The notes: generated by a model not told the origin, from the letters alone. Shown: positions 2,102-42,104, numbered from the stretch's first letter. The stretch is 45,338 nt of DNA from Acidobacteriota bacterium (GCA_025358945.1 JANYHS010000282.1:1-45338), one strand, 5' to 3'. Translations and numbers: made by a program.

Positions 2102-2130
2102 ATCCTAACGGTAATGGGGGCAAGGTTCAA
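2102..2130 (-). promoter_or_regulatory. Putative sigma70 promoter of 6S RNA
   Basis: Minus strand TTGAAC (2130-2125), 17 nt, TAGGAT (2107-2102), ending about 6 nt before the predicted 6S 5' end. Confidence 0.6.
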
Positions 2131-2151
2131 GGTGCAGGTGCAGGGTGCAGG
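2117..2151. repeat. Heptamer tandem array (GGTGCAG-like)
   Basis: ggggcaa ggttcaa ggtgca ggtgcag ggtgcag g between zapA and 6S RNA. Confidence 0.7.
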
Positions 2152-2156
2152 CTTGT

Positions 2157-2447
2157 TCAGGCGGAAAGGACGCGGTCGAGCAGGCGCTCGAGTTCGCCTG
2201 CGCGCTCGGCCAGTTCGCCGTTCCCGGCACGGGTGCCGTCGCGGCACCGGAACAGCTCGTCGGCCACGTTCAGCGCCGCGAGCACCGCGAGCCTCAGCGA
2301 GTCGCCGGTGGGCGTGGAATCGGCGGCGGCGCGCATCTTCTCGTCGACGTACTGCGCGAGCCGCGCGACGTACTCCTGATCCAGCCCGCTGCGGATCGGG
2401 TAGCGCTGTCCGTGGATCTCGACAGAGATGACGGCGTCGTCGGACAT
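2157..2447 (-). CDS. zapA: Cell division protein ZapA
   Basis: VEIHGQRYPIRS...YVDEKM...LAVLAALNVADEL pattern; sits between pheT and 6S RNA. Confidence 0.93.
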   Translation of the reverse strand: MSDDAVISVEIHGQRYPIRSGLDQEYVARLAQYVDEKMRAAADSTPTGDSLRLAVLAALNVADELFRCRDGTRAGNGELAERAGELERLLDRVLSA

Positions 2448-2726
2448 TTAGAGGCTGAGCGACTCGAGTTGTTCGAGCATGTCGGTGACGCGTGTGCGGA
2501 TGACGTCGCGTTCATCCTTCAACGCGGTCAGCTCGGTGATGAGCCCTTCGCTCGAGGACAGCCGTCCGCGCAGGCTTTCCAGTTCGCTCGACAGGCGCTG
2601 GTTGTCTTCGGTGGCGCGGGCCGTCTCGATCTTCATGCGCTCGACCATCGCGACGAGAAGCTTCACCTTCTCCTCCAGCCGATCGATGGGTTCGAGATCC
2701 ACGCTGCGGGTCGCTGTCTTTGCCAT
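2448..2726 (-). CDS. zapB: ZapB-like coiled-coil cell division protein
   Basis: 92 aa all coiled coil (IDRLEEKV...ERDVIRTRV), immediately upstream of zapA; a TACAAT -10 lies upstream. Confidence 0.7.
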   Translation of the reverse strand: MAKTATRSVDLEPIDRLEEKVKLLVAMVERMKIETARATEDNQRLSSELESLRGRLSSSEGLITELTALKDERDVIRTRVTDMLEQLESLSL

Positions 2727-2763
2727 GATGTCCTATCCGTCTGTCGCGCTATTGTAGGCTGCG

Positions 2764-4896
2764 TTATCTTTGGATCGCCGCATGCTCGCGGACGAGCGCG
2801 GCCAGAATCGTGTCGACGCTCTGCTGAATTTCCGCGTCGGTCAAGGTGCGATCCGCCTGAAACACGAGCCGCACCGAGAGGCTGACGGCGCCGTCCGGCA
2901 CGCCCTTACCTTGATAGCGATCGAAAAAGCTCGCCGCCTCGAGCGGCGCCGGAAGATTGCGCCCAGCGGTCAGAATGGTGCCACGAATGATTTCGGCAGG
3001 CAAGGCATCCGCCACCACGAACGACAGGTCGCGGACGACGAACGGATGACGCGGCAGCGGGCGGGTGGCGTCGCCGGCCGACACCCGCGCGCGCGCCAGC
3101 AGATCGAGATCGGCCTCCGCGACGAACACGCGATCCTGTCGCGGCAGCCCGCGCGCATCCGCGATCGCCGGCGCGAGTTGTCCCGCCACACCGATGCGCG
3201 CGCCGCGTTCGGGTCCGTCGGCGACCACGATCGCCGCGGCCTGGCCCGCGACCAGAAACGTCTCGCTGGCCGGTTCGAACCGGCAGGCGACACCGAGCGC
3301 GTCGCACAGGTGTTCGACGCTGCCCGAGACGTCGAAGAAGTCGACGTCTCGCGCGCCGCCCGACCAGTGTTCGACGCCACCGGTTCCGGTCCACGCGACG
3401 GCGACGCTGCGCGTTTCTCCTGAGGGCGCGAACCGCGTACCGATCTCGAAGAGCTGCACGTCGCGCCGGCCGTGGCGCCGGTTGTGTGCGACCGCATCGA
3501 CGAGCCCCGGCAGCAGCGATGGACGCAGTGTGTCGAACTTCGCCGACAACGGGTTGGCGATCCCAACCGTCGCATTAACCGCGGAGTTCGCTGAGCTCGC
3601 CGACAGATCTTGGCTCTGCGTGTTCTGCGTGCTCGGCGGTTGCGTGTAGGGTTCTGCTGCTCGTGCCTCGATGAACCCGAACGTCACCGCCTCTGAAAAT
3701 CCCGCGGCGGTCAGCACTCGGCGCGCGAGCTGATCCCGGGTGATGCGCGGATCGGGTGGCGGTGCCGGCTGCGTGACCACTGGGAACGTCGCGTCGAGCT
3801 TGTCGAAGCCATAGTGACGGCCCGCCTCTTCGATCAGATCCACTTCGCGCAGCAGGTCCACGCGGAACGTTGGCGCGACCACGTCCCAGCCGTCGCCGGC
3901 CGGCGTGACCTCGAGCCCCAGGCCACGCAGAATCCGCGTCACCTCCACGTCAGGCACGGCCGCGCCGAGCAGGCGCGCCAGGCGGTCGCGCCGCAGGTGC
4001 AGGCGCTTCGCGGTGCGCGGCTGCGGGTAGACGTCGACGATCGATCCCACCGGCTGTCCCGCGCCGATCTGCTGCATCAGCGCGATCGCGCGCTGGAGCG
4101 CGATGACCTGGCCGTTGATGTCCGCGCCGCGCTCGAAGCGCGAGGACGCTTCGGTCTTCAGGCCGAGTTTCTTGCTCGTGCGCCTGACGGAGGCCGGCGC
4201 GAAGTACGCGGCCTCGAAGACGACGGTCGTGGTCGTCGCCGACACTTCGGACGCGGCGCCGCCCATCACACCCGCGACGCCTTGCGCGCGATCGCGGTCG
4301 GCGATGACCAGCATGTCCGGATCCAGCTTCCGTTCGACGCCGTCGATCGTCGTGCATGTTTCCCCGGGCTTCGCGCGGCGCGCGGTGAGCGTGGCGCCGG
4401 CGAGGCGGGCCAGATCGTACGCGTGCATCGGCTGGCCGAGTTCGAGGTTCACATAGTTCGTGATGTCGACGAGGTTGCTGATCGGCCTGACGCCGGCCGC
4501 CTGCAGCCGCGCCGCCATCCAGGCCGGCGAACTGCCCATGCGCACGTCCGCGACCGCGGCCGCAAACCGCAGGCAGAGGTCGGGCTCGTCGATCGTGACG
4601 GTGATGCGATCGGAGGATCCGGATGCGATTGCCGCCAGGGCGGCGCGCGCGCCGGAGGTCGCGGCGGGCAGCGTGAGCGGAAGGTCGTAGGCGGTCGCTA
4701 CTTCACGCGCGAGCCCGAGCACACTCAAGGCGTCCGGGCGGTTCGCGGTGACCTCGAAATCGATCACGGCATCATCGCCGCCGAGCGATTCGACCGACGC
4801 GACCTCGAAGCCGCGCAGGGCGAGCGCGCGCGCGACATCGTCGGCCGGCGCCTGCACGTCGACGAATTCACGGAGCCATGAGAGAACTAGTCGCAT
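2764..4896 (-). CDS. pheT: Phenylalanine--tRNA ligase beta subunit (short form)
   Basis: True start MRLVLSWLREF at 4896; contains TANRPD, B3/4, B5 (PTFRVDL..EVDLIEE) and FDX-ACB domains. The 1020-aa track ORF is over-extended. Confidence 0.96.
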   Translation of the reverse strand: MRLVLSWLREFVDVQAPADDVARALALRGFEVASVESLGGDDAVIDFEVTANRPDALSVLGLAREVATAYDLPLTLPAATSGARAALAAIASGSSDRITVTIDEPDLCLRFAAAVADVRMGSSPAWMAARLQAAGVRPISNLVDITNYVNLELGQPMHAYDLARLAGATLTARRAKPGETCTTIDGVERKLDPDMLVIADRDRAQGVAGVMGGAASEVSATTTTVVFEAAYFAPASVRRTSKKLGLKTEASSRFERGADINGQVIALQRAIALMQQIGAGQPVGSIVDVYPQPRTAKRLHLRRDRLARLLGAAVPDVEVTRILRGLGLEVTPAGDGWDVVAPTFRVDLLREVDLIEEAGRHYGFDKLDATFPVVTQPAPPPDPRITRDQLARRVLTAAGFSEAVTFGFIEARAAEPYTQPPSTQNTQSQDLSASSANSAVNATVGIANPLSAKFDTLRPSLLPGLVDAVAHNRRHGRRDVQLFEIGTRFAPSGETRSVAVAWTGTGGVEHWSGGARDVDFFDVSGSVEHLCDALGVACRFEPASETFLVAGQAAAIVVADGPERGARIGVAGQLAPAIADARGLPRQDRVFVAEADLDLLARARVSAGDATRPLPRHPFVVRDLSFVVADALPAEIIRGTILTAGRNLPAPLEAASFFDRYQGKGVPDGAVSLSVRLVFQADRTLTDAEIQQSVDTILAALVREHAAIQR
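3577..3641. repeat. Inverted 9-mer array element inserted in-frame in pheT
   Basis: aacc gcggagttc gctgagctc gccga ... tctgc gtgttctgc gtgctcggc ggtt, with terminal AACCGC/GCGGTT. Confidence 0.7.
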
Positions 4897-5969: not shown

Positions 5970-5972
5970 GAG

Positions 5973-6064
5973 CAGGGTCCAGAGGCTAGGGGCTTGAGTG
6001 GGGGCTTGGGGCTGGAAAGGCAACCCCGGCTTGCTCGCCCCCAGTCCCCAGCCCCGAGTCCCTG
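5973..6064. repeat. Inverted heptamer arrays (TGGGGC / CCCCAGT type) between rplT and pheS
   Basis: cagggtc cagaggc taggggc ... ttggggc tgg // ccccagt ccccagc cccgagt ccctg. Confidence 0.75.
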
Positions 6065-6067
6065 TTG

Positions 6068-6516: not shown

Positions 6517-6587
6517 ATTCAGATTTCAGAATTCAGATTTCAGATTGGATTTCAGATTGAATCTGAAATTTGAACTCTGAAATCTGA
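6517..6587. repeat. Inverted heptamer arrays (WTTCAGA)n / (TCTGAAA)n
   Basis: attcaga tttcaga attcaga tttcaga ttgga tttcaga ... tctgaaa tttgaac tctgaaa tctga; AT-rich within a GC-rich background. Confidence 0.9.
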
Positions 6588-10695: not shown

Positions 10696-11868
10696 CTAGC
10701 GTTTCTTCAACCATTGTAAGGGATCGACTGGCCGACCGTCGACGCGCAGTTCGAAGTAAATACCCTCGGAGCCCGAGGGTATCGGCCCGACGGCGCCGAC
10801 CGGCTGGCCGTGTTCGACCCGCGCGCCTTTCTTGACGCCAATCTCCAGTAAATCGCCGTACAAGCTGAATGTCTGGGCGCCGTGATCCAGGATGACCAGG
10901 TTCCCGAAGCCCTCGAACGTTCCCGCAAACGCGACCGTGCCGTCGTGGATCGCCAGGGCGTCCGCGCCTTCGGGTGAGGCGATCTCGATGCCGTTCGACG
11001 CGGAGCCGCGGCCGAAGCGGCGCTGGACGCCGCCGCTGACCGGCCATTCGAGCGTGCCGCGAAACGGACGCAGGGGCAGCGCCGCCTCGGTGACCGGAGC
11101 GCCCGTCGCCAGCTCGCGCAACGCGGTTTGCAGTTTCTGCTGCGCCACCTGAAGCTCGCCCGACAACTGGGCGTTCAGATCGCGGCGCTTGTCGATGTCG
11201 CGGATGAGGTCGGCCCGCGCCTGCGCGGCACGCTGGGCGGCGGCCTCGGCCTTGGCGGCGGTGGTGCGCAGTGTGCCGAGCGTCGCGCTGCGCTCTTCGA
11301 GCGTCTTGCGCGCGGTCGTAAGGTCGGCGAGTGTCTGTGCGTGCGTGGCGACGCGGTCGCGATCCAGCTTGGCGAGTGCCGCGACCGTGCGCGTCGACTG
11401 ACCCAGGCGACGCAGATCCGGCGTCGACAGGAGCAGCCGCAGGTACCGCGCCTGACCGAGCTTGTAGATTTCGACGAGCCGCTCGTTCAACTCGGGAAGC
11501 TCGGCGGTTGCCGATTGCTGCAGCGCGCCCATCCGCGCGCTGGTCTGGTCGAGTTCCGTCTGCACCGTGGCCGCGTCGGCATCGACGCGCTTCAACTCCG
11601 CGGCCTTCAGCTCGCGTTCGATCTCGAACTTGCGCAGGTCGCCAAGCAGCGTCCGCTCGTCCGACGCGAGACGATCGGCTTCGCGCTGCAGCGCCTGCAG
11701 CCGCTCGGTCGCGCGCCGCGCCAGCGCTTCGGTCCGCGCGCGCTCGATCGGCAACTGTGCGCTGACCGCGGAGACGAGGAACGCAAAGACCGCGAAGGCC
11801 GCAAAGAAACCCTTTGTGGCTAGCCCCCAGTCCCCAGTCTCCAGTCCCCTAGAAGATCGGCTTGCCAT
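10696..11868 (-). CDS. envC: EnvC-like murein hydrolase activator (coiled coil + degenerate M23)
   Basis: Signal peptide, long coiled coil, WPVSG...NGIEI...GFGNLVILDHG...YFELR...VDP; M23 His ligands are absent. Start uncertain. Confidence 0.8.
   Translation of the reverse strand: MASRSSRGLETGDWGLATKGFFAAFAVFAFLVSAVSAQLPIERARTEALARRATERLQALQREADRLASDERTLLGDLRKFEIERELKAAELKRVDADAATVQTELDQTSARMGALQQSATAELPELNERLVEIYKLGQARYLRLLLSTPDLRRLGQSTRTVAALAKLDRDRVATHAQTLADLTTARKTLEERSATLGTLRTTAAKAEAAAQRAAQARADLIRDIDKRRDLNAQLSGELQVAQQKLQTALRELATGAPVTEAALPLRPFRGTLEWPVSGGVQRRFGRGSASNGIEIASPEGADALAIHDGTVAFAGTFEGFGNLVILDHGAQTFSLYGDLLEIGVKKGARVEHGQPVGAVGPIPSGSEGIYFELRVDGRPVDPLQWLKKR
11782..11852. repeat. Adjacent 9-mer (CGCRAAGRC) and 7-mer (CCCCAGT) arrays at the gene junction
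   Basis: cgcaaagac cgcgaaggc cgcaaagaa, then ccccagt ccccagt ctccagt cccctag. Confidence 0.75.
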
Positions 11869-14381: not shown

Positions 14382-15433
14382 AAAAGCTGCTCGGTTTCCT
14401 GCTTCTGGTAATGGTCGGCGCCGCCGCCGCGGCGGGCCTGCTGTACATGCGGGTCTACGAACCGTATCGGGGATACGCCGAGGCGGAGCAGTTTGTCGAT
14501 CTGCCGCAAGGCATCGGGAGCCTGCCGATCGGCGAGCGGCTGGTTCAGGCCGGCGTGATTCGCGATCTGTCGACCTATCGCGCCGCTCTGTGGATGAGTG
14601 GTCAGGGGCGTCATCTGAAGGCCGGCGACTACCGGTTCGATCGCGCGATGACGCCGTTCGAGATCATCGACAAGATCGCGCGCGGTGAGGTGTTCGTGAT
14701 CACCGTGACGTTCCCGGAAGGATTGACGATCGCCGAGATGGCGAAGATCTTCGAGTCGCACGGCCTCGGGCCCGCTGGGGCGTTCGTGAAGGCGGCGGCC
14801 GATCCGGCAGCGATCCGCACTCTCGATCCGGCCGCGAAGGACCTCGAAGGCTATCTGTTTCCAGAAACCTACGCGCTGCCGCGCCACACCGATGCGGCGA
14901 AGCTGGTGCGCGCGATGGTCGCGCGCTTCGAGAAAGTGTTGACGCCTGAGTTACGACAGGCCGCAACCGCGCGCCGTCTCACCGTGCGGCAAGTGGTGAC
15001 GCTGGCGTCGATTGTCGAAAAAGAAACGGCCAAAGCGGACGAGCGTCCGCGCGTGGCCGCGGTCTACACGACGCGGTTGCGGATTGGCATGCCGCTGCAG
15101 TGCGATCCGACGGTGATCTACGGGCTCGCGAAAGCCGGCCGCTACGACGGCAACATTCACAAGGCCGATCTGTCGTTTGATTCGCCGTACAACACGTATC
15201 GCTATTCCGGCCTGCCGCCCGGGCCGATCGCGTCGCCGGGCCGCGCCTCGCTCGACGCGGCCGTTCACCCGGCCGACGAGAATTTTCTCTATTTTGTGAG
15301 CCGCAACGACGGCTCGCACGCATTCGCCCGCACCCTCGAGGAGCACAACCGCAATGTTCAGAAGTATCAGGTTCAGTACTTCAGAGATCAGAAGGCAGGC
15401 AGGTCGGGTGGGGCAGGCGGGTCGCGTCGGTAG
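14378..15433 (+). CDS. mltG: Endolytic transglycosylase MltG
   Basis: TFPEG, LEGYLFPETY, LASIVEKE, LQCDPTV, SPYNTY..GLPPGPI; ATGA overlap with ruvX. Confidence 0.95.
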   Translation: MKKLLGFLLLVMVGAAAAAGLLYMRVYEPYRGYAEAEQFVDLPQGIGSLPIGERLVQAGVIRDLSTYRAALWMSGQGRHLKAGDYRFDRAMTPFEIIDKIARGEVFVITVTFPEGLTIAEMAKIFESHGLGPAGAFVKAAADPAAIRTLDPAAKDLEGYLFPETYALPRHTDAAKLVRAMVARFEKVLTPELRQAATARRLTVRQVVTLASIVEKETAKADERPRVAAVYTTRLRIGMPLQCDPTVIYGLAKAGRYDGNIHKADLSFDSPYNTYRYSGLPPGPIASPGRASLDAAVHPADENFLYFVSRNDGSHAFARTLEEHNRNVQKYQVQYFRDQKAGRSGGAGGSRR

Positions 15434-16940: not shown

Positions 16941-16961
16941 CGCGAAGGCTTTAGCCGAGCG
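16937..16961 (+). repeat. GTAG-headed REP-like hairpin
   Basis: GTAG CGCGAAGGC TTTA GCCGAGCG; near-identical copy at 38006-38030; contains the M20 stop codon. Confidence 0.75.
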
Positions 16962-16967
16962 TCGCCC

Positions 16968-18742: not shown

Positions 18743-19499
18743 GAAGATGGAGAAAGAATTCCTGGTTGCCGGTGGCGCCGGTGATCGCGGACGGCGCCAT
18801 CGCGATCCGGGTGAGGCCGCACGTCGCGGCGGCTTCGGTGACGCGGGCGATCACGGCTTCGTGCACCGCCGGGTCGGAAACGATGCCGTGCTTGCCCACT
18901 TCCTCGCGGCCGGCTTCGAACTGCGGCTTCACGAGCGCAATGACGTCGGCGTGCGGATTAAGGAACGTGGGCAATGCCGGCAGGATGTGGCGCAACGAAA
19001 TGAACGCGACGTCGATCACCACCAGGCTCACCGCATGCGGCACATCGTCTGGCGTGAGCGCGCGCGCGTTGACGCCTTCGTGGACGAGGACGCGCGGGTC
19101 GGTGCGCAGCCGCCAGTCGAGTTGACCGCGGCCGACGTCGATGGCGATGACGCTGGCCGCGCCGCGCTGCAACAGGACGTCGGTGAAACCGCCGGTTGAG
19201 GCGCCGACGTCGAGCGCGCGGCGTCCGCTCGGATCGACGTGGAATGCATCCAGCGCGCCGGCCAGTTTCAGCCCGCCGCGTCCGACGTAGGGATGATCGG
19301 GAACGGCAAGTTCCACGCGGGCATCCGCTTTGACCGGCGCGCCGGCTTTCGACACGACCTGGCCGTTGATGGTCACCTGGCCCGCGAGGATCAGCGCCCG
19401 CGCCCGCTCGCGCGACGGGGCGAGGCCGAGGTCGACGAGCGCCACGTCGAGGCGCGTCTTAGCGGCCAAACTCTCCACCACAGAGGACGCGGAGGACAT
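18729..19499 (-). CDS. tlyA: TlyA family rRNA methyltransferase
   Basis: S4 domain (RLD...SRERA), YVGRGGLKL, DVGASTGGFTD, LVKPQFEAG, GNQEF. Start uncertain. Confidence 0.94.
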   Translation of the reverse strand: MSSASSVVESLAAKTRLDVALVDLGLAPSRERARALILAGQVTINGQVVSKAGAPVKADARVELAVPDHPYVGRGGLKLAGALDAFHVDPSGRRALDVGASTGGFTDVLLQRGAASVIAIDVGRGQLDWRLRTDPRVLVHEGVNARALTPDDVPHAVSLVVIDVAFISLRHILPALPTFLNPHADVIALVKPQFEAGREEVGKHGIVSDPAVHEAVIARVTEAAATCGLTRIAMAPSAITGATGNQEFFLHLRAAG

Positions 19500-25116: not shown

Positions 25117-25197
25117 GCGGGGCCAGGTAGGCCAGGTAGGTCGGGTAGGTCAAGTCGGTCGGGTAAGAACCTGGCCCACCCGACCCACCCGACCCCG
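25117..25197. repeat. Inverted 9-mer arrays downstream of dnaK
   Basis: gccaggtag gccaggtag gtcgggtag gtcaagtcg gtcgggtaa // acctggc ccacccgac ccacccgac cccg. Confidence 0.85.
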
Positions 25198-31747: not shown

Positions 31748-32589
31748 CATCACCCGTGGCGCAGGCTTTCACGCCTGCGGTGTTCGCATTAGGTTTCCTG
31801 CTCGCCTTCGCTGCTCTCGCCGCTGCGCAAGCGCCGCAACCAACGGTCGTTCCCGCACCCGCGGCGCCGGAATTTCTGACGCGCTACGACTTCCACATGT
31901 CGGCGACGTCGTTGCTGCCCTCGGACGCGACGCCGGCCCGGGTCGTGGCGGACGAGCGCTTTTCGTGGGACACGCATTTCGGCGGATCGTTCGACATCGC
32001 TGATCTCGTCGTGGCGCGCCTCGGTGTCGTCGCCGATTATCAGGCGGTGCTCGGCAGTGAATACCGGCCGTTCGATCCGAATCAGGGCAGCTATACGCTC
32101 GAGGGCTTCATCTCGGCGCGGATCAATGCCGACACGGAAGTCGCCGGGATCTTTCATCACGTGTCGCGTCATCTGAGCGATCGGCCGAAACCGTTTGCGG
32201 TCGCCTACAACGAGATCGGCGGCCGGGTGATGCGGCACGTGACACTCGCCACCGCGACCATTGATGTGGATCTCGAAGGCGGCCGGGCGACCCAGCATTC
32301 CTATGTGGACTACACCTGGCTGGGTGAAATGCACGTGCTCGTGCGCCATCCGATCAGTCCGCGTCTCGGCGTGTTTGGCCATGGTTCCGGGCAGCTGTTC
32401 GCGGTCGACGAGACCCTCGCGCACCGCGGCACCCAAGCGGGCGGGTTGATTGAGGTGGGTCTGCGGGTGACCGGCCGGGCTGGTGTGCTGGAGATTTTTG
32501 CGGGCTACGAGAAGCGCGTGGACGCCGATCCGCTCGACCGCCTGTCGCAGCGATGGGGCCTCGCCGGGTTCCGTCTACTCAGTAGATAA
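31720..32589 (+). CDS. Secreted, probable outer-membrane beta-barrel protein
   Basis: Signal peptide; alternating amphipathic strands; ends ...WGLAGFRLLSR. Family not recognised. Confidence 0.6.
   Translation: MSDTPEGSLASPVAQAFTPAVFALGFLLAFAALAAAQAPQPTVVPAPAAPEFLTRYDFHMSATSLLPSDATPARVVADERFSWDTHFGGSFDIADLVVARLGVVADYQAVLGSEYRPFDPNQGSYTLEGFISARINADTEVAGIFHHVSRHLSDRPKPFAVAYNEIGGRVMRHVTLATATIDVDLEGGRATQHSYVDYTWLGEMHVLVRHPISPRLGVFGHGSGQLFAVDETLAHRGTQAGGLIEVGLRVTGRAGVLEIFAGYEKRVDADPLDRLSQRWGLAGFRLLSR
31756..31779 (+). repeat. GTGG-headed REP-like hairpin
   Basis: GTGG CGCAGGC TTTCAC GCCTGCG. Confidence 0.75.
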
Positions 32590-33957: not shown

Positions 33958-36272
33958 TGTGGCGCACGACTTCAGTCGTGCGATCGGCGCGATCCGCATG
34001 CCTGAAGGCATGCGCCACTTGTGCCATCAGCCTGCTGTCAGTCTCTGCGTCCGCGCAGTCGGCCGCCTGGCCGACCGAGCGGCCGCCGCAGCCGTTGCCG
34101 GCGCGTGCAATCACGTTCCCGCCCTACGAGGTCCAGACGCTGCCCAACGGGCTCCAGGTCGTCGTCGTCATGCACCACGAGCAGCCGGCGGTGACGATGC
34201 GCCTGCTCGTCCGCGCCGGCACGTCCTCCGATCAACGCGAGAAGCTCGGGCTCGCGCACCTGGCCGCGTCGCTCCTCGATCAGGGCACGACGACCAAGTC
34301 GGCGCAGGAGATGAATGACGCGGTGGACTTCATCGGCGGGGCGATGGGCGCCGGCGCCGGCACCGATCTCACGTTCGTCAACATGGTCGTGATGAAGGAC
34401 AGCTTCGACACCGGGCTGCGCATGCTGTCCGACATGGCGAGGCAACCGGCGTTCGCGACCGCGGAGGTCGAGCGGCAGCGGCAGCAGATGTTGTCGGGCC
34501 AGACCGTCAGCCTCGAGGATCCCGGGTACATCGCGAACTCGGTGTTCGATCGCCTGGTCTACGGCTTCCACCCGTACGGCATGCCGGAAAACGGCACGCC
34601 GCAGACGATCGCCGCGCTCTCGCGGGCCGACCTGCAGGCGTTCCACGCGCGCTTCTTCATGCCGAATAATGCGATCCTCGCGATCGTGGGCGACGTCACC
34701 GCGGACGAAGCGTTCACCGCGGCGAAAAAAGTGTTCGGCGACTGGGAGAAGCACGACCTGCCGGTGCAGACGTTTGTTGGACCGCCCGATCCCACGCGCC
34801 GCGTGATCGTCGTCAACAAGCCGGACGCCGTACAGACCGAAGTGCGTGTCGGCCACCTCGGCATCTCGCGCACGCACCCCGACTACATGGCGGTGAATCT
34901 CGCCATTCGGATTCTTGGCGGCGAAGGCAGCAACCGGCTGCATCAGGTCCTGCGGACGGAGCGCGGGCTCACCTACGGCGCGCAGGCGAACATGGACACG
35001 CTGAAGGAGACCGGCGATTTCGAAGCCGAGACCAACACGCGAACCGAGGCCACCGGCGAAGTGCTGCGGCTGATTGTCGACGAATTCTGGCGCATGCAGC
35101 GCGAGCGCGTCGGCGATCGCGAGCTCGACGGCGCGAAGGCGTATCTCACCGGCAGTTTCCCGCTGACCATTGAGAAGCCGGAGTCGATTGCGATGCAGGT
35201 GGTGAACGCGCTGTTCTACGGCTTGCCGCTCGCGGAGCTCCAGAATTTCCGCGAGCGCGTCAACGCTGTGACCCCCGATGACATCCAGCGCGTCGCCAAG
35301 GAGTTGCTGCGTCCGGATCGCCTGTCGGTGGTTCTGGTCGGCAACTCGGCGGCGTTCGCATCGCAGTTGCGCGGCGCCGGCTTCGGCAGTTTCGAAGCAG
35401 TGGAACTCGGTGATCTGGATCTGACCACGGCGAACTTCAAGCGAGCGGCGGTCAAGGCGCAGCAGGATGCGGGCGGGCCAGGTAGGTCAGGTGGGGCTGG
35501 TAGGTCAGGTGGGTTTGAGGGGTGGGGCGTAGCGCACGACGTTAATCGTGCGGCGACCTTGAACTATCAGCTGGCGCCGCTGGCGAGTCGTCCACCGGCG
35601 GATCCGCGACCGGAGGATGCGCCGAAGGCGCTGGCGCTGCTCGACCGCGCGATCGCGGCGAAGGGTGGCCTGGAGAAACTGCGCGGCATCAAGACCATTG
35701 TCGCCAGGCAAACGCTGGTCAGCCTCGACTCCGATCGCGCGGCGACGTCAGAGACCACCAACTACCTTCAGTACCCCGATCACTTCCGCGTCGAATCGCC
35801 GATGCTGATCCAGGCGTTCGACGGCGCGCAGGCGTGGCTGAAGGACGTTCGCGGCGTGCACGACGGTGGGGAGCCGATGGCGCGCGATTCACGTCTGGTC
35901 ATGCGCCGCGACGTCGTCTCGTTGCTGCTGGCGGCGAAAGACGGGACGTTGACGCCACGGCTGCTGCCCGACGTGAAGGATCCCGACGGGCGCGTGACGC
36001 ACACGCTCGAGTTGTCGGCCAGCGATCTCAATCCGATCGTGCTGTATATCGATCCCGAGTCCGGCCAGATCGGCAAGCGCCTGTTCACCGCCGACGCTCC
36101 CGGTCGGCCGCTCATCGAGGAACAGTTTTTCGACTACCGCGAGGTCGACGGCGTCCAGGTGTCGTTCCGCGCCACGCAGAAGGTCGGGAATTTGTCGGTC
36201 GAGCGGCGCGCGATAGACGTGAAGATCAACACGCCCATTGATCCCGCGATGTTCAAACGCCCGGTGTCTTGA
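33954..36272 (+). CDS. M16 family non-catalytic subunit with additional C-terminal domain
   Basis: HxxEH replaced by HLAAS; SNRL..LRTERGLTYG; Gly-rich linker followed by a beta-rich domain of about 215 aa. Confidence 0.88.
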   Translation: MMWRTTSVVRSARSACLKACATCAISLLSVSASAQSAAWPTERPPQPLPARAITFPPYEVQTLPNGLQVVVVMHHEQPAVTMRLLVRAGTSSDQREKLGLAHLAASLLDQGTTTKSAQEMNDAVDFIGGAMGAGAGTDLTFVNMVVMKDSFDTGLRMLSDMARQPAFATAEVERQRQQMLSGQTVSLEDPGYIANSVFDRLVYGFHPYGMPENGTPQTIAALSRADLQAFHARFFMPNNAILAIVGDVTADEAFTAAKKVFGDWEKHDLPVQTFVGPPDPTRRVIVVNKPDAVQTEVRVGHLGISRTHPDYMAVNLAIRILGGEGSNRLHQVLRTERGLTYGAQANMDTLKETGDFEAETNTRTEATGEVLRLIVDEFWRMQRERVGDRELDGAKAYLTGSFPLTIEKPESIAMQVVNALFYGLPLAELQNFRERVNAVTPDDIQRVAKELLRPDRLSVVLVGNSAAFASQLRGAGFGSFEAVELGDLDLTTANFKRAAVKAQQDAGGPGRSGGAGRSGGFEGWGVAHDVNRAATLNYQLAPLASRPPADPRPEDAPKALALLDRAIAAKGGLEKLRGIKTIVARQTLVSLDSDRAATSETTNYLQYPDHFRVESPMLIQAFDGAQAWLKDVRGVHDGGEPMARDSRLVMRRDVVSLLLAAKDGTLTPRLLPDVKDPDGRVTHTLELSASDLNPIVLYIDPESGQIGKRLFTADAPGRPLIEEQFFDYREVDGVQVSFRATQKVGNLSVERRAIDVKINTPIDPAMFKRPVS
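33959..34018. repeat. Inverted REP doublet (REPIN-like), 60 bp
   Basis: GTGGCGCACGACTTCAGTCGTGCG, 12 nt, CGCATGCCTGAAGGCATGCGCCAC. Confidence 0.88.
35469..35552. repeat. 9-mer array plus REP-like hairpin inside the M16 gene
   Basis: gccaggtag gtcaggtgg ggctggtag gtcaggtgg, then GTAGCGCACGACGTTAATCGTGCG (35529-35552). Confidence 0.85.
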
Positions 36273-37429
36273 GCGCGCGCCTTCTGCTGTCTTGCGGCGA
36301 AGCGTCCGGCGACCTTTATGCCGGCGCGCTGACCCGCGAACTCCTCAGGATCGATCCCTCGATCAGCATCTCCGGCCTCGGCGGTCCGCAGTTCGCGGCG
36401 GCCGGCGGCCGCCTGGTCGATGACTATCGCGAGATGTCCGTCACCGGACTGACGGAGTGGATCCCGAAGCTGCCGCGATTCCTCGCCGCTCGCCGGCGCC
36501 TGGTTGCGGAGGTGGAGTCCCAACGGCCCGACGCGTTGATTCTGATCGATTTCTCCGGCTTCAATTTCAGGCTCGCACCGTCGATCAAGCGGTTGGGCGT
36601 CCCGGTCATCTACTACATCAGCCCGCAGATCTGGGCGTCGCGCGCGGGACGGCTAAAGACAATTCGCGCCATCGCCGACCGCGTGCTGGTGATCTTTCCG
36701 TTCGAGGCGGCGATCTACGAGAAAGGCGGCGTGCCGGTCGAGTTCGTCGGGCATCCGCTGATCGATCTCGCGACCCCGTCGGCGACGCGCGAACAGTTTC
36801 TCGCCGGCCGAGGGCTGACGCCGTCGGCACCGACCGTCGCGATCCTTCCGGGCAGCCGCCCGAACGAAGTGTCGCGCATCCTGCCCGATCTTGTCGGCGC
36901 GGCACGATTGATCCGACGTGATGTGCCGGACGCGCAGTTCGTGGTCGCCCGCGCGCCGCACCTCGACGACAGCCTGTACCGCGCGCTTGGCGTGCATGAT
37001 GATGCGCGCGCGAGCTTCACGATCGTCGATGGCGATACCGACACCGTGTTGGCGTCCGCGGACGTCGCGCTGACGGCGTCCGGCACGGCAACCGTGCAGG
37101 CGGCGCTGCACGACACGCCCATGGTCGTCGTGTATCGCATGGCGCCGTTGTCGTATCAGCTGGCGAAGCGCGTCGTGAAGCTCGACACGATCGGGATGGT
37201 GAACCTGATCGCCGGCGAGAGAATCGTCCCCGAACTGGTGCAGGATGCGTTCACGCCTGAGGCCGTCGCGCGTGAGGCGATCTCCATGCTCAGAGACCAC
37301 GCGCGCGCAGCGAAGATCCGCGCGGGCCTCGCGACCGTTCGATCGCGTCTCGGCGGCCCCGGCGCCAGCCGCCGCGCGGCAGAGGCGATCCTGCGAATTG
37401 CGGATCGCGGATTGCGGAATGCGGATTAG
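36269..37429 (+). CDS. lpxB: Lipid A disaccharide synthase
   Basis: GEASGDL, IDFSGFN, YYISPQIWA, FPFE, FVGHPL, LPGSR, ASGTAT. Confidence 0.96.
   Translation: MSARLLLSCGEASGDLYAGALTRELLRIDPSISISGLGGPQFAAAGGRLVDDYREMSVTGLTEWIPKLPRFLAARRRLVAEVESQRPDALILIDFSGFNFRLAPSIKRLGVPVIYYISPQIWASRAGRLKTIRAIADRVLVIFPFEAAIYEKGGVPVEFVGHPLIDLATPSATREQFLAGRGLTPSAPTVAILPGSRPNEVSRILPDLVGAARLIRRDVPDAQFVVARAPHLDDSLYRALGVHDDARASFTIVDGDTDTVLASADVALTASGTATVQAALHDTPMVVVYRMAPLSYQLAKRVVKLDTIGMVNLIAGERIVPELVQDAFTPEAVAREAISMLRDHARAAKIRAGLATVRSRLGGPGASRRAAEAILRIADRGLRNAD
37393..37427. repeat. Heptamer array (GCGGATT) forming the lpxB C-terminus
   Basis: gcgaatt gcggatc gcggatt gcggaat gcggatt ag. Confidence 0.8.
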
Positions 37430-37995: not shown

Positions 37996-39029
37996 AGGCG
38001 CATCCGGAGCGCGAAGGCTTCAGCCGAGCGACGCGTCCGCTCGCCCTGATCGTTGTCGCTACGTTGCTGTTCGGCCAGGCCACGCCCGCGTTCGCCTACC
38101 TGAAATTCGGCGTGCCGGTGCGAGGCCAGCAGGTGACGCTGAAATGGTCGCAGACGCCGGTGCGTTATTTCGTGTCGGATACCGGGGTCTCCGGCGTCAC
38201 CTCGGCGGACCTGCAGGGCGCGGTGGGACGCGCGTTCGCCAGCTGGCAGGCCGTGCCGACGGCGTCGATCACGTATCAATTCGCGGGCGTGACGTCGGCG
38301 AGTCCGGGAAAAGACGATGGCGCGTCGGTGCTGGGATTTCAGAGCCGACCCGATCTGGATCGCGTGCTCGCGTCGACGAGCTTCCTGGTCGATGCGTCGA
38401 CCGGTGCGCTCATCGAGTCCGATATTTTTTTCAACGCCGCGTTTCCCTGGTCGGTCTCGCCGAGCGGTGAGCCCGGCAAGTTCGATGTCGAGAGTATTGC
38501 GCTCCACGAGATCGGCCACTTCAGCGGCCTCGGCCACTCCGCGCTGGGCGAGACCGAGTTGCTCAGTACTGGCGGCCGGCGCGTGTTGAGCGCGGAGGCG
38601 GTGATGTTTCCGATCGCGTTCGCCGCTGGCAGCATCGCGTCGCGTACGCTGAAGGCCGACGATATCGCCGGCATTTCCGATCTGTATCCCGACGGCAACT
38701 TCGCCACCACCGACGGCAGCTTGTCCGGGCGCGTGACGAAAGACGGTCAGGCGATATTCGGTGCGCACGTCGTTGCCTTCAACGTGGCGACGGGGCTGAT
38801 GGTCGGCGGATTCACGCTGAACGCGCAGGGACAGTTTTCGATTGGCGGCCTGTCGCCAGGCCCGCACATCGTTCGCGTCGAGCCGCTCGATGACGCCGAC
38901 ACCACAAGTTTCTTTGACGCCGCGCAAAACGTGGATATCGACTTCCGGGTGGCCTACCTCGATCGCGTCATCGTGGTGCCCAAGGGCGGGGATAGCGGAG
39001 CGGTGACGCTGACGGTCGTGCGCAAATGA
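37992..39029 (+). CDS. Matrixin (M10-like metzincin) metalloprotease with C-terminal beta-sandwich
   Basis: HEIGHFSGLGH (HExxHxxGxxH), Met-turn AVMFP, LKADDIAGISDLYP. Confidence 0.9.
   Translation: MKAHPEREGFSRATRPLALIVVATLLFGQATPAFAYLKFGVPVRGQQVTLKWSQTPVRYFVSDTGVSGVTSADLQGAVGRAFASWQAVPTASITYQFAGVTSASPGKDDGASVLGFQSRPDLDRVLASTSFLVDASTGALIESDIFFNAAFPWSVSPSGEPGKFDVESIALHEIGHFSGLGHSALGETELLSTGGRRVLSAEAVMFPIAFAAGSIASRTLKADDIAGISDLYPDGNFATTDGSLSGRVTKDGQAIFGAHVVAFNVATGLMVGGFTLNAQGQFSIGGLSPGPHIVRVEPLDDADTTSFFDAAQNVDIDFRVAYLDRVIVVPKGGDSGAVTLTVVRK
38006..38030 (+). repeat. REP-like hairpin in the matrixin N-terminus
   Basis: GGAGCGCGAAGGCTTCAGCCGAGCG; two mismatches to 16937-16961. Confidence 0.7.
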
Positions 39030-39712: not shown

Positions 39713-40461
39713 TGGCCGTGCCGGCCATTGAATTTCGCGGCGTCTCGTTCGCGCGACCCGGCCGGCCGCGCATCCTCGATCACTTCTCCCTGACCGTGGA
39801 ATCAGGCGACGTGCTTGCGCTCGTCGGCCGCAGCGGCGCCGGCAAGAGCACGCTGCTGAAGCTGGTGAACCGTCTGTTGCTGCCAGACGAGGGCGCCGTG
39901 TTGGTCGAAGGACGAGACACGCGCGAGTGGGAGCCGATCGCATTGCGACGCAACGTTGGGTACGTGCTGCAGGATGTCGGGCTGTTCCCGCACATGTCGG
40001 TGGCAGACAATGTCGCCGTGGTGCCGCGGCTCGAAGGGTGGCCGGCGGATCGCATCGCGCCGCGCGTCCACGAACTGCTCGACCTGGTCGGGCTGCCCGC
40101 GGGCGAGTTTGCCGCGCGGTGGCCTGACGAATTGTCGGGCGGGCAGCGTCAGCGCGTCGGTGTGGCGCGCGCGCTCGCTGTTGATCCGCCCGTGCTGCTG
40201 ATGGACGAACCGTTCGGCGCGCTCGATCCGCTCACGCGGGCTGAGCTGCACGCGGAGTTCCGCCGCATCCAGTCGCGCCTCCGCAAAACCGTGATCATCG
40301 TCACGCACGACATGGGTGAAGCCTTCGCGCTTGCCGATCGCGTCGGCGTGCTCGAGGACGGTCAGCTGATCGCCTGCGACCGCGCCGCCGCGGTGGCCGC
40401 GTCCACCGACCCGCGTGTTCGGCGTCTGCTCGACGCGATCGTCTCGGTACCCCGATCATGA
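39712..40461 (+). CDS. Osmoprotectant-type ABC transporter ATP-binding protein
   Basis: GRSGAGKS, LSGGQRQRVG, LLMDEPFGALDP, VTHD; true start MAVPAIEF. Confidence 0.92.
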   Translation: MAVPAIEFRGVSFARPGRPRILDHFSLTVESGDVLALVGRSGAGKSTLLKLVNRLLLPDEGAVLVEGRDTREWEPIALRRNVGYVLQDVGLFPHMSVADNVAVVPRLEGWPADRIAPRVHELLDLVGLPAGEFAARWPDELSGGQRQRVGVARALAVDPPVLLMDEPFGALDPLTRAELHAEFRRIQSRLRKTVIIVTHDMGEAFALADRVGVLEDGQLIACDRAAAVAASTDPRVRRLLDAIVSVPRS

Positions 40462-40491
40462 CCTTGGTGTCCTTAGTGTCCTTTGTGGTGA
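40461..40491. repeat. 9-mer array (CCTTNGTGT)
   Basis: accttggtg tccttagtg tcctttgtg gtga between the ABC genes. Confidence 0.7.
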
Positions 40492-40504
40492 CCAGGCCCG
40501 TCGA

Positions 40505-42037
40505 ATGACCCGGCTGTTGTCTTTCTGGTTGTCGCACCGCGCCGAGCTTGCGAGCCTGTTCGGCCAACACGTGCTGCTCGTCGCCGGCTCCACGTTCGTC
40601 GCGGTCGCGATTGGCGTTCCGCTCGGCATTTTCTCCGCGCGCCGCCCGCGCATGGCGTCGCCGCTGATGGCCGTAGCCAGCATCGTGCAGACGATTCCGA
40701 GCCTCGCAATGTTCGGCTTTCTCCTGCCCGTGCCGTTCATCGGCGGTGTCGGCGCGCGCGCGGCGCTCGTCGTGCTGATTCTCTACGGACTGCTTCCGAT
40801 TGTGCGGACGACGATCGCGGGGCTGCGCGGAATTGATCCCGCGATTCGCGAAGCCGGCGTCGCGATGGGGATGACGGCTGGCGAACTGCTGCGGCAGGTC
40901 GAACTGCCGCTGGCGCTGCCCTCGATCGTGGCCGGCATCCGCGTGGCCGCAGTGGTCGGCGTCGGCTCGGCGACGATCGCCGCGGCGATCGGCGCGGGCG
41001 GGCTCGGCGAGTACATCTATCGCGGCTTGTCGATGGTGGACACCACCGTGATCCTCGCCGGTGCCATTCCGGCGGCCGTGCTCGCGCTGGTTGTCGACGG
41101 TTCGCTGCTGTGGCTGGAGAAGCAGTTGTCGTCTCGCCGGCGATCCTCGTCACGCCGTGTGGTCGCGACGACCGCCGCGGTCATTCTCGCGGCCGTGATG
41201 GTGGCGAGCGCGTCCGCCGCGCGTCGTGCCAGTGGAGCGATCGTGGTCGGCTCGAAGAATTTCACTGAGCAGCTGGTACTCGGCGAACTGCTTGCGCAGA
41301 CCATTGAGCGCGACGCCGGTCTGCCGGTGGACCGCCGGCTGAATCTCGGCGGCACGTTGATCTGCGATCAGGCGCTGATCACTGGCGACATCGACGTCTA
41401 CGTCGAATACACCGGGACCGCGCTCACCGCCGTGTTTCATCAACCCGTCAGCAACGATTCGAGCGCGGTGTTCGACACCGTGCGCGCGCTCTACGCGAAA
41501 ACCGGACGCACGCTGCTGCCGCCGCTCGGGTTCAACAACACGTTCGCGATCCTCGTGCGCGGCGACGAGGCGCGCTCTCGGGGTCTGCGCACGGTGGACG
41601 ATGCGGCGCGGGAGTCGGGGCATTGGAAGGCCGGGTTCGGCTACGAGTTCGTCGAGCGGCCGGACGGCTACGACGGCCTGGCGAAGGCGTACGGCATGCG
41701 CTTTCCGGAGGCGCCGCGCGTGATGGACCTGACGCTCAGTTATCGCGCGCTGGCGGCGGGGCAGGTGGACATGATTGCCGGCGACGCCACGGCAGGACTA
41801 ATCAAGGGGCTGGACCTGTTCCAGCTCGAGGACAACCGCCACTACTTTCCGCCCTACGACGCGGCGGCGGTCGCGCGCGCGGCGACGCTCCTGCGTTATC
41901 CGCAGCTGCGCACGGCGCTCGAGAAGCTCTCAGGCCGCGTCTCGGCCGCCGACATGCGCGCCATGAACTACGCCGCCGACGTCGAGCACCGCGACGTCCC
42001 GGTGATCGTTCGCGAATTCCTCGCCCGCACGCGCTAG
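40505..42037 (+). CDS. Quaternary-amine ABC transporter permease/substrate-binding fusion
   Basis: QTIPSLA, EAA loop, IGAGGLG, then VGSKNFTEQ, YVEYTGT, NNTFA, FPPY. Confidence 0.92.
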   Translation: MTRLLSFWLSHRAELASLFGQHVLLVAGSTFVAVAIGVPLGIFSARRPRMASPLMAVASIVQTIPSLAMFGFLLPVPFIGGVGARAALVVLILYGLLPIVRTTIAGLRGIDPAIREAGVAMGMTAGELLRQVELPLALPSIVAGIRVAAVVGVGSATIAAAIGAGGLGEYIYRGLSMVDTTVILAGAIPAAVLALVVDGSLLWLEKQLSSRRRSSSRRVVATTAAVILAAVMVASASAARRASGAIVVGSKNFTEQLVLGELLAQTIERDAGLPVDRRLNLGGTLICDQALITGDIDVYVEYTGTALTAVFHQPVSNDSSAVFDTVRALYAKTGRTLLPPLGFNNTFAILVRGDEARSRGLRTVDDAARESGHWKAGFGYEFVERPDGYDGLAKAYGMRFPEAPRVMDLTLSYRALAAGQVDMIAGDATAGLIKGLDLFQLEDNRHYFPPYDAAAVARAATLLRYPQLRTALEKLSGRVSAADMRAMNYAADVEHRDVPVIVREFLARTR

Positions 42038-42040
42038 CAG

Positions 42041-42104
42041 GTAGCGCACGACTCGCGCACGTGGCGCACGACTCGCGCACGTAGCGCACGACTTCAGTCG
42101 TGCG
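42041..42104 (+). repeat. Tandem REP-derived array (two truncated 20-bp units plus one full hairpin)
   Basis: GTAGCGCACGACTCGCGCAC GTGGCGCACGACTCGCGCAC GTAGCGCACGACTTCAGTCGTGCG. Confidence 0.9.

Follow-up and report, generated by a model that had tools for sequence, protein, structure and literature searches.

Dispersed short repeats at gene junctions of a Vicinamibacterales genome, and the small nuclease and four-helix-bundle genes found between related arrays

Introduction

Why should a stretch of bacterial DNA filled with housekeeping genes carry some 20 short repeat sequences at its gene junctions and within its open reading frames (ORFs), and by what route did they arrive? The stretch of 45,338 nt considered here (GCA_025358945.1 JANYHS010000282.1:1-45338, “the window”, taken at its full length) is contig C146 of a 3.9-Mb metagenome-assembled genome (MAG; 372 contigs, 65.5% G+C) of a soil bacterium of the Vicinamibacterales (Acidobacteriota); the relatives of its PheS carry Acidobacteriota and Vicinamibacterales MAG labels. 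A sequence-only reading of the window had listed at least 18 such elements and ascribed them to trans-acting mobilisation or templated synthesis. We followed this up in the window's own genome (G000) and in related Vicinamibacterales genomes (G001–G030), 31 genomes in the family surveys.

The window probably holds about 20 short, dispersed, non-autonomous repeats of three groups, shaped by entry at gene junctions, loss of an internal gene, drift by slippage and a filter on reading frame. The first group, hairpins headed by GTRG, would be moved by a repetitive extragenic palindrome (REP)-associated tyrosine (HUH) transposase (RAYT) encoded elsewhere. The second, CRCRRAG-NN nonamers, would be gene-less forms of an element in which an array, a GxxExxY PD-(D/E)XK nuclease gene and the inverted array follow one another. 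The third, made up of other 7-, 8- and 9-mer arrays, would be of the same kinds as those that bracket four-helix-bundle (23S-rRNA-IVS/Avd-like) genes. Elements would enter at gene junctions, the same junctions being used repeatedly by different families; an internal gene would then be lost by deletion, after which unit number would drift by slippage, and copies within ORFs would survive only where the frame is kept.

To our knowledge, bacterial heptamer arrays have been catalogued for decades without agreement on their origin or role, and the GxxExxY proteins and the four-helix-bundle “23S rRNA IVS” (intervening sequence) proteins, both very widespread, have no assigned function. If the link between arrays and genes is general, arrays and small genes explain each other, and both can be tested.

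Tandem arrays throughout the genome

Every element of the sequence-only reading shows the described sequence at its coordinates, and the arrays among them belong to a genome-wide excess. Using Tandem Repeats Finder (TRF; score ≥40, ≥2.8 copies) on G000 and a triplet-shuffled copy of it, we obtained 149 versus 1 arrays of period 7, 45 versus 2 of period 8 and 113 versus 13 of period 9, which places these three classes ≈10- to 150-fold above the control; periods 14 (24 versus 0) and 18 (28 versus 1) behave likewise. The 7- and 9-nt periods first described thus stand, as part of a wider set in which arrays of period 8 and 11 also exist and unit families number more than three. Unit families recur genome-wide: AATCCGC in ≈40 arrays, AAATCTG, AACTTAG, AGCCCCC and AGCCCTC in 14 to 16 each, ACCCACCTG-type nonamers in 13 to 19 each, and AATTACCC octamers in 13.

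The expected clustering at gene junctions was borne out, in that 207 of the 362 arrays in G000 lie between gene calls, as against 8.8% of 5000 random placements (3515 calls from a crude, purpose-made gene caller). For heptamer arrays the count between genes is 91 of 149 (62+19+10). The 105 arrays called within coding sequence are a soft count, both because the gene calls are crude and because ordinary GC-rich coding repeats are included. The layout of array, spacer and inverted array recurs in part and is not general: an inverted partner above the 99th percentile of the control accompanies 74 of the 362 arrays, and 6 of 14 window elements, each folded against 200 shuffles, beat 199 to 200 of them.

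Dispersed copies of one family share internal order. Among the nonamer triplets of G000, 13 of 19 (hand count) carry a CGCAAAG middle unit between CGCRGAG units, which points to copying of a defined terminus of ≈25 nt. The GCGGATT family has a T variant in unit 2 at 11 loci, as against 3 to 4 loci for each other unit and 12 loci lacking the variant, an order weaker than the by-eye impression and one whose categories overlap at ≤1 mismatch. The elements are dispersed, and their dispersal by copying is supported.

Nonamer arrays and GxxExxY nuclease genes

In line with the sequence-only reading, the window yielded no candidate enzyme: Pfam searches of its 38 ORFs gave no Y1_Tnp, PDDEXK_3 or 23S_rRNA_IVP match. 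Elsewhere in G000 there are candidate trans-acting genes: three of RAYT or RAYT-like type, three intact ones for GxxExxY nucleases and two to three for four-helix-bundle proteins. Together with multicopy dispersal they favour the part of the earlier inference that invoked trans-acting mobilisation; its other part, templated synthesis, found no support. Of the gene classes to be sought beside the repeats, RAYT genes (beside family A REPs) and small nuclease genes (GxxExxY) turned up, four-helix-bundle genes turned up in addition, and no reverse transcriptase (RT) was noticed beside the array-bearing genes examined.

A scan of G000 for genes flanked by arrays of a single family retrieved two small PD-(D/E)XK genes of the GxxExxY class (TIGR04256, 137 bits; PF13366), and a scan for complementary flanks retrieved a four-helix-bundle remnant on contig C164; otherwise the two scans of this genome gave ordinary housekeeping genes and no new enzyme family. 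Each of the three intact GxxExxY genes of G000 has inverted 8/9-mer arrays on its two sides, and the fourth match, a remnant, abuts an array hairpin. Members of the family are present in 18 of the 31 genomes. We scored flanks by aligning the upstream sequence with the reverse-complemented downstream sequence, taking as cut-off a score of 30, the 99th percentile of 2817 G000 control genes; 22 of the 25 GxxExxY loci examined have ≥200 nt on both sides, and 17 of these 22 score >30. The flanking unit is C[AG]C[AGT][AG]AG plus 1 to 2 nt. The strict pattern CRCRRAGNN ×3 occurs 0 to 121 times per genome, as against almost no matches to the reversed control pattern across the 31 genomes, and a PF13366 match is found in 15 of 16 genomes with ≥2 such triplets versus 3 of 15 with ≤1, the genomes being kin and hence non-independent.

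An alignment of 19 GxxExxY proteins shows D62, E72, K74 and the GxxExxY motif to be invariant, as would be expected of active nucleases. The nuclease may recognise the nonamer arms and move the nonamer elements. A PDB sequence search with the GxxExxY profile returned nothing. The function of PF13366 is entered as “Unknown” in the relevant portion of PMC3424549, and an excerpt of an RT-classification preprint mentions GxxExxY once, as a neighbouring domain.

Two further observations concern the nonamers. G001 alone has 19 matches to the reversed control pattern, which suggests a further array family with a mirror-image unit, and where a nonamer copy bears a gene, its purine-rich arm precedes that gene on the sense strand.

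Arrays around four-helix-bundle genes

The second partner gene encodes a four helix bundle protein (TIGR02436, 66 bits; PF05635, “23S-rRNA-IVS protein”) that matches PDB 2RLD, an “Uncharacterized protein.” This family occurs in 26 of the 31 genomes, a single genome giving as many as 17 matches, and 16 of the 24 loci with full flanks score >30 in the flank test. The arrays that flank it repeat with period 7, 8 or 9 and are diverse in unit sequence; GGTGCAG-type, CGTTCGT, GGTCGGGTR and AGAACTG units, also seen in or opposite the window, are among them. In G000 the copy on C170 has AGAACTN upstream, that on C127 has AATTCCCC-type arrays, and the C164 copy is a 56-aa remnant between inverted AATTACCC arrays. 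The four-helix elements would rely on a factor supplied in trans, and the periodic arms of both kinds of element may serve to let the stem pair in several registers across a long loop.

PF05635 proteins belong, we assume, to the family of Avd, the accessory protein of diversity-generating retroelements, which brings in the possibility that arrays are written by templated synthesis, with a reverse transcriptase or telomerase-like enzyme assisted by an Avd-like four-helix protein. One RVT_1 match in G000 speaks for it. This sole RT-like ORF (G000:C247:7016-7639, 113.6 bits) nevertheless has one internal TAG and lies beside no array-bearing gene examined; no adjacent RT was noticed at 24+8 four-helix and 22+8 GxxExxY loci, whose neighbours were viewed without a Pfam scan; and deletion already accounts for the passage from gene-bearing to gene-less forms described below. 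We regard templated synthesis as highly improbable.

Orthologous junctions with a gene, without a gene and without an array

Empty sites exist in relatives, and the presence of an element at a given junction varies even within the genus. At a junction between coxS- and coxM-like genes, a GxxExxY element is present in G000, G002, G004, G008, G011 and G030. The closest relative, G009 (≈92% identity), shares these arms and the leader and is missing precisely the gene module of ≈413 nt, and in G006 the first ≈27 nt of the GxxExxY gene are joined to the right arm. G005 is gene-less, G010 has a different nonamer hairpin and G024 a heptamer hairpin; the junction is array-free in G017, G003, G012, G007, G018, G021 and G026. 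At a second junction, octamer arrays of AATTGGG type enclose a full four-helix gene in G007 and G008; G000 retains the 56-aa remnant, G006 nothing beyond array and inverted array, and G009, G003, G012 and G002 are empty; CACGAAG nonamer hairpins occupy the site in G001 and G010 and a nested hairpin occupies it in G004. These gene-bearing to gene-less forms are a deletion series, and unrelated families use the same junction repeatedly.

Such junctions bear on the simplest alternative, in which polymerase slippage makes the arrays in place, nothing is mobilised and the small genes merely sit in repeat-prone intergenic DNA. Unit number does differ between orthologous arrays, most arrays are solo, and small indels are seen within the window's arrays at 6052 and 6547 in low-depth contigs; heptamers are, moreover, the commonest class of long repeat in many bacteria, for which Mrazek 2007 proposed slippage, as cited in the introduction of PMC4679880. 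Slippage leaves unexplained the ordered variants that recur in dispersed copies, the gene module precisely present or absent inside conserved arms, the unrelated unit families at one junction in sister genomes and the conservation of a 21-nt array motif (ACCACAGAGGACRCRGAGGAC) over contigs of 36 to 73% G+C, and alone it does not yield hairpin arms that share one unit in inverted orientation. In five same-genus genomes, which provided a comparator for 15 of 18 window sites, orthologous sites are empty, filled, or filled by another family, which agrees with the earlier rejection of local slippage as the sole cause. We hold slippage to be decidedly unlikely as the source of the arrays; it may still change unit number after insertion.

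REP elements and their transposases

Two families of ordinary REP elements account for the GTRG-headed hairpins, and this part of the repeat set is a familiar type of system, in which HUH enzymes of the RAYT type act on the hairpins. In 3.9 Mb, family A, GT(G/A)G-CGCACGACTTCAGTCGTGCG, numbers 90 loci and family B, GTAG-CGCGAAGGCTTYAGCCGAGCG, 137. The head is GTGG in 63 and GTAG in 20 of 120 strand hits of family A (83 in all), and GTAG in 105 of 137 for family B. The folded window segments that contain family A copies (33950-34025 and 42038-42110) beat every one of their 200 shuffles, while the single family B copy, with 24 of 200 shuffles as good, is not outstanding. In the window, REPs lie at gene ends, and two lie in frame within ORFs. 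Occupancy differs among same-genus genomes: the site at 20290 is empty in G002 and G006, that at 37996 in G009 and G008, and that at 31748 in G006.

Three Y1_Tnp matches were found in G000, all outside the window. Against NF047646, “REP-associated tyrosine transposase” (cut-off 80), the RAYT on C84 (C84:789-1286) scores 106.5 bits and has family A REPs on both sides, that on C223 scores 81.1 bits, and a RAYT-like protein on C184 scores 64.2 bits, under the cut-off. The G000 assembly has no family B RAYT; one with family B REPs alongside occurs in G001:C5. A link between the C223 RAYT and AGGGCT heptamers was considered and dropped, because the G009 orthologue has no array there. Genes of the C184 type and their relatives occupy conserved loci with species-specific tandem 11- to 15-nt arrays on both sides (10 of the 36 Y1 loci examined); in G000 the 11-mer family concerned, GGGGTCWGACCCC with ATTCCGACCCC-type arms, gave 28 strand hits, spread over 17 contigs. 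Tandem arrays can thus accompany HUH enzymes, an association that does not extend to the 7- to 9-mers. The C184 protein matches ISDra2-type transposase chains in the PDB weakly (E 0.005), and a related-locus search with it found no relative. REP 5' halves are themselves tandemly amplified with period 18 to 21, period-18 arrays of REP halves occurring elsewhere in G000, so that some process builds tandem arrays from REP half-sites.

A RAYT gene in G011 (L074, C9:370760-371080) is accompanied by a REP, is flanked on both sides by AATCTGA heptamer arrays in direct orientation, and looks as if it had been inserted into a pre-existing array. Many RAYT, GxxExxY and four-helix-bundle genes (for example L171, L178, L219 and L225) have a CTTGCA/TTGCAC/TTGCTC motif ≈15 to 30 nt before the start codon, a possible recognition site or common promoter element.

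Elements within open reading frames

The sequence-only reading held that elements leave reading frames unbroken, and comparison across species agrees: segment lengths between anchors differ only by multiples of 3 in pheT (81/51/87/39/66 nt in five genomes), in the second M16 peptidase ORF, M16b (101/110/68 nt in three), at the N terminus of a matrixin-like ORF (45/9/9 nt in three) and at the xseA 5' end (76/67/88/79/154/172 nt in six genomes, each with different heptamer arrays). Frame-keeping copies add low-complexity loops and tails to proteins; the pheT insert translates as a low-complexity loop (YTQPPSTQNTQSQDLSASSANSAVNA), and the REP in M16b is read in frame as GVAHDVNRAAT. The AATCCGC family, open in all six frames, is the one most often absorbed into ORFs. 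In this lineage the consequence for annotation is that ORFs (pheT, xseA, lpxB, peptidases) are lengthened or interrupted in frame and that calls of start codons are misled; the elements probably also contribute to the fragmentation of such MAGs.

Structure, position and a possible host function

Position and structure raise the question of whether the arrays serve the host as cis-regulatory RNA, whether as terminators or attenuators, RNase III or stabiliser stems, or translation enhancers or sequesters, under selection at gene junctions, the small genes then being passengers that settle in such stems, where an insertion does no harm. At the rplT-pheS junction (20 examined), an array or hairpin is present in all 11 own-genus genomes and in most of the same family, and its units differ among genomes, so that what is conserved is the position, not the sequence. 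Members of the GCGGATT family favour the sense orientation 24:6 and often abut a start codon, as do TAACTGA heptamers in Beggiatoaceae according to the abstract of PMC4679880. Nonamer units (19471-19560 and others) contain Shine-Dalgarno-like GGAG, GAGG or AAGG and their opposite arms contain CCTC, so that nonamer hairpins pair Shine-Dalgarno-like with anti-Shine-Dalgarno-like runs; on plasmids the small genes sit inside operons without disruption.

This explanation sits poorly with the many junctions that are empty in close relatives and show no visible replacement, with the elements inside ORFs, and with the conservation of arm sequences across phyla, which it leaves unexplained. Structure is likewise uneven: well-folding elements lie at 5969-6067, 6510-6595, 19465-19568, 25114-25200, 33950-34025 and 42038-42110, and the fold of 3570-3650 is marginal (10 of 200 shuffles as good), while 7 of the 14 folded window elements do no better than their 200 shuffles. 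A host role as the general explanation seems unlikely to us, and we retain dispersed, non-autonomous elements as the preferred account.

Arrays and genes in other phyla

The same array-gene architecture is found on plasmids of Bacteroidota, Gemmatimonadota, Alphaproteobacteria and Cyanobacteria. GxxExxY homologues occur on eight plasmid records, all of which we examined: in Bacteroides finegoldii and Bernardetia the gene lies between CACAGAGGA-type arrays, in Gemmatirosa CCGCAGAGGA arrays surround it in a different arrangement, Sphingomonas has CACAGAGGA-type arrays upstream only, and Persicobacter and Prevotella have other 8- to 9-mer arrays. Four-helix homologues occur on 51 plasmid records, mostly cyanobacterial (22 Nostoc), of which eight were examined. 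In Nostoc punctiforme, Trichormus variabilis and Nostoc C052 the locus is orthologous, heptamers running up to the four-helix start codon and their complement following the stop; Picosynechococcus and Azospirillum have inverted 8- to 9-mer arrays, Pseudanabaena has long heptamer arrays on both sides in direct orientation, PCC 7120 has a heptamer array on one side and Calothrix is weak. On several plasmids the small gene lies within an operon (fabD-fabG, cas6-cas4, cas10-cmr3). The Sphingomonas GxxExxY gene (L207) is wedged between fabD and fabG, the nonamer array reaching its start codon; the array-flanked four-helix genes of the Pseudanabaena (L260) and Picosynechococcus (L264) plasmids lie in CRISPR (clustered regularly interspaced short palindromic repeats)-Cas operons, at cas6-cas4 and cas10-cmr3.

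A DNA pattern scan of metagenomes for the 21-nt motif gave at least 118 stretches, from which 80 loci were kept, and in 11 of the 80 the motif forms plus/minus pairs 52 to 192 nt apart, which are gene-less hairpins. These distributions raise a wider and more tentative proposal, namely that such elements are selfish and cross-phylum, each a small gene for an Avd-like four-helix-bundle protein or a GxxExxY nuclease within inverted arrays of 7- to 9-nt units, that heptamer and nonamer short tandemly repeated repetitive sequences (STRRs), or long simple sequence repeats, of Cyanobacteria, Bacteroidota, Acidobacteriota and others are their gene-less forms, and that the element's own protein, as opposed to slippage, recognises, spreads and perhaps extends the arrays. 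We consider this possible yet doubtful.

Several findings weigh against the preferred account. Solo arrays that form no hairpin make up 288 of the 362 in G000, and GCGGATT, the largest heptamer family, is seen around no gene. A GxxExxY ORF lies at only 1 of the 80 metagenome motif loci, so that gene-less arrays vastly outnumber genes. Five of the 22 GxxExxY loci and eight of the 24 four-helix loci lack flank complementarity above the control; in G005 there are 11 nonamer triplets without any PF13366 match, in G023 three PF13366 genes without a strict triplet, and more distant GxxExxY homologues are flanked otherwise, by a single inverted repeat in Treponema and by 45-nt direct repeats on a Fusobacteria plasmid. 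Unit sequences differ among copies of the four-helix elements, unlike the product of a simple copy-and-paste transposon, and we know of no catalytic activity of the four-helix-bundle protein, which thus cannot alone be the mobilising enzyme. By-eye comparison of empty and filled boundaries revealed no target-site duplication, target motif or transposition event. We infer that the GxxExxY nuclease may move the nonamer arrays, and some trans factor those of the four-helix class.

Relation to known repeat systems

The REP/RAYT part of the window is already known; the arrays vary on repeat classes described before and have a testable link to two uncharacterised, very widespread gene families. Like the REPs and paired REPs (REPINs) with RAYTs of Enterobacteria, Pseudomonas and Stenotrophomonas (“SMAG”), the hairpins here have the size, the imperfect palindrome, the GT(A/G)G head and hundreds of extragenic copies, which are single, in inverted pairs or clustered, and a Y1 HUH gene has REPs of its own family on both sides. 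Unlike them, some copies here are fixed in frame in ORFs, 5' halves are amplified, and a second, RAYT-like class (64 bits) lies beside tandem 11- to 15-nt arrays in place of classical REPs.

Tandem heptamers, including GGGNATC, are known in Nostoc and Xanthomonas from the abstract of PMC4692102, and TAACTGA heptamers in Beggiatoaceae, Cyanobacteria and Bacteroidetes from that of PMC4679880. As those abstracts describe for STRRs and other heptanucleotide arrays, tandem 7-mers here are genome-wide and over-represented between genes, near stops or upstream of starts (PMC4692102, PMC4679880), and the CCCCAGT/GGGGACT unit at 11825 also occurs in Nostoc, as the section title “GGGGA(C/T)T” of PMC4692102 shows. 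In contrast, at least twelve unit families, with periods of 7, 8, 9 and 11, coexist here in one genome, about a fifth of the arrays form array-inverted-array hairpins, and there is a link to four-helix and GxxExxY genes, which the abstracts of PMC4692102 and PMC4679880 do not mention. Our literature search, which left subscription journals and supplements outside its reach, found no account of these arrays in Vicinamibacteria and no link of arrays to GxxExxY or four-helix genes.

Intervening sequences of 23S rRNA are stem-loop insertions in rRNA helices, cut out by RNase III and either short and gene-less or long with a PF05635 ORF in the loop. The elements here are likewise stem-loop insertions in transcribed regions, with or without a four-helix ORF (16 of 24 loci with complementary flanks), but at all loci examined they lie at or in protein genes in place of rRNA helices, and their stems are tandem arrays. 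Miniature inverted-repeat transposable elements are also short, non-autonomous and high in copy number, with inverted termini, rarer gene-bearing relatives that share the arms, and presence/absence variation; here, however, target-site duplications were not seen, neither partner gene encodes a known transposase, and the termini are internally periodic. CRISPR arrays differ in having 24- to 48-nt repeats with unique spacers, whereas the 7- to 11-nt units here stand head to tail without spacers. Diversity-generating retroelements, which combine an RT gene with Avd and template/variable repeats, differ too, in that the sole RT-like match of G000 has the internal TAG and no RT was noticed in the flanks, which were viewed without a scan of the neighbours.

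Individual elements of the window

Pfam searches identified the housekeeping genes rny, zapA/B, pheST, rplT, infC, thrS, dnaK, xseAB and gatCA in the window, together with lpxD/B, peptidases, an ABC system and hsdM. TRF called arrays at listed sites at 2116-2151, 6039-6062, 6516-6587, 11825-11849, 25121-25195, 37392-37427, 40462-40487 and 42037-42093, and the inverted-repeat search gave the pairs 6519/6560, 19471/19527, 20293/20351, 25130/25169 and 33959/33995. Several sites are empty in at least one relative or filled there by another family.

A solo array of GGTGCAG-type heptamers (2116..2151, TRF) lies between the zapA stop (2157) and the 5' end of a 6S RNA gene (2088) and lacks a fold signal (80 of 200 shuffles as good); G009 and G006 have GGTTC-type heptamers there, and GAGGTGC/GGGTGCA arrays flank four-helix-bundle genes in G003:C295 and G012:C298. 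In pheT, an in-frame nonamer-array hairpin (AACCGCGGAG...CTCGGCGGTT; 3577..3643, minus strand) falls in the tRNA_synthFbeta domain region (fold z −1.97), with copies in G008 and G002. Two heptamer hairpins follow on the minus strand. That between the rplT stop and the pheS start, GGGGCTN/NAGCCCC (5973..6065, from TRF and sequence), folds at −53.6 kcal/mol with 1 of 200 shuffles as good; that between rpmI and rplT, TTCAGAT/AATCTGA (6517..6587, from TRF and the inverted-repeat search), has z −6.14 (0 of 200) and many dispersed copies in G001 and G008, while its own site holds an AGCCCTG array in G009 and only about one unit in G006.

The claim that different families stack at one site is upheld at 11782-11849 and 35469-35552. 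At the first, a solo nonamer array (CGCAAAG-AC CGCGAAG-GC CGCAAAG, 11782..11820), an exact CRCRRAGNN ×3 match without fold signal and of the unit class that brackets GxxExxY genes, is joined by a heptamer array of CCCCAGT (11825..11849, from TRF and sequence), which we take to be the STRR1 unit. At the second, within the second M16 peptidase ORF, a GGTCAGGTR nonamer array (35469-35525) is followed by a REP (35529-35552), both on the plus strand and supported by sequence and self-BLAST.

Two arrays recognised by sequence, at 15394..15440 (weak, GGCAGGCGG/GGTCGGGTG-type, at the yceG/M20-peptidase junction) and at 22172..22230 (GGGRCTN heptamers at the 5' end of the xseA ORF, minus strand), are degenerate and drew no TRF call; they are credible only because relatives show clear arrays at those sites, five of five relatives each having a different 7-mer array at the latter and G002 lacking the array at the former. 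The nonamer-array hairpin at 19471..19560 (CCACCACAGAGGACGCGGAGGACA ... inverted, minus strand, from fold and inverted repeat) appears to be a gene-less GxxExxY-type form; it folds at −60.7 kcal/mol (z −6.79, 0 of 200), has dozens of copies in G009, and shares 27 of 30 nt of its arm (hand count) with the array upstream of the Bacteroides finegoldii GxxExxY gene. Just 3' of the dnaK stop, a GGTNRGGTN nonamer hairpin with its inverted arm (25117..25195, plus strand; TRF and inverted repeat; z −3.91, 0 of 200) is of a unit type also seen upstream of a four-helix-bundle gene in G009:C621. A GCGGATT heptamer array (37392..37427, plus strand, TRF) forms the 3' end of the lpxB ORF and belongs to a family of ≈40 arrays genome-wide; G008 has a nonamer hairpin at that junction. 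Between the stop of an ABC ATPase gene and the start of a permease gene lies a nonamer array of CCTTAGTGT (reverse complement ACACTAAGG; 40461..40487, TRF) without fold signal, a site for which no relative supplied a comparator.

The remaining elements are REPs. A family B copy (GTAG-CGCGAAGGCTTTAGCCGAGCG, 16937..16964, plus strand) has 37 self-BLAST matches and is missing from that site in G002. Three family A copies (20293..20386, from inverted repeat and self-BLAST) lie between an ispA-like gene and xseB, where G009 has two copies and G002 and G006 have none. A variant (GTGG-CGCAGGCTTTCACGCCTGCG, 31756..31779, plus strand, from sequence) 3' of the lpxD stop is kept in G009 and missing in G006. 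A REPIN-like inverted pair of family A (33959..34018, plus strand, from inverted repeat and self-BLAST; z −3.71, 0 of 200) is replaced in G002, G008 and G006 by CACAGAGAC-type array hairpins; in G009, at the site matching window position 33950, the REP 5' half is amplified head to tail with period 20 to 21. A family B copy with 20 self-BLAST matches (38005..38032, plus strand) lies in frame after codon 2 of the matrixin-like ORF and is absent in G009 and G008 (45 versus 9 nt between anchors, a 36-nt difference). Finally, a family A REP follows two tandem copies of its own 5' half, period 20 (42037..42104, plus strand; TRF score 100; z −2.86, 0 of 200).

Rfam searches matched no family to the repeats; at gathering thresholds they gave only the 6S RNA and a tRNA, and at E ≤1 only far-sub-threshold hairpins resembling microRNA precursors. 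Contigs in Logan from four DNA runs of one study, possibly the source of the MAG, contain the stretch and span the arrays at 2117, 3577, 15394, 16937 and 19471 with few differences, and in RNA sequencing runs 0.05 to 0.06 of the words of the stretch are present. The 6S RNA gene (1908-2088, minus strand; RF00013, 77.4 bits) lies directly 3' of zapA, with the array at 2116-2151 just upstream of its 5' end; we presume that E. coli has the same order, zapA then 6S RNA. The tRNA gene (9390-9462, minus strand; RF00005, 71.4 bits) lies between thrS and an S41 peptidase gene, and copies of this segment recur elsewhere in relatives, on other contigs. At the end of the window (42392-45289), a PIN-domain ORF and hsdM (N6 DNA methylase) adjoin the REP cluster at 42037-42104.

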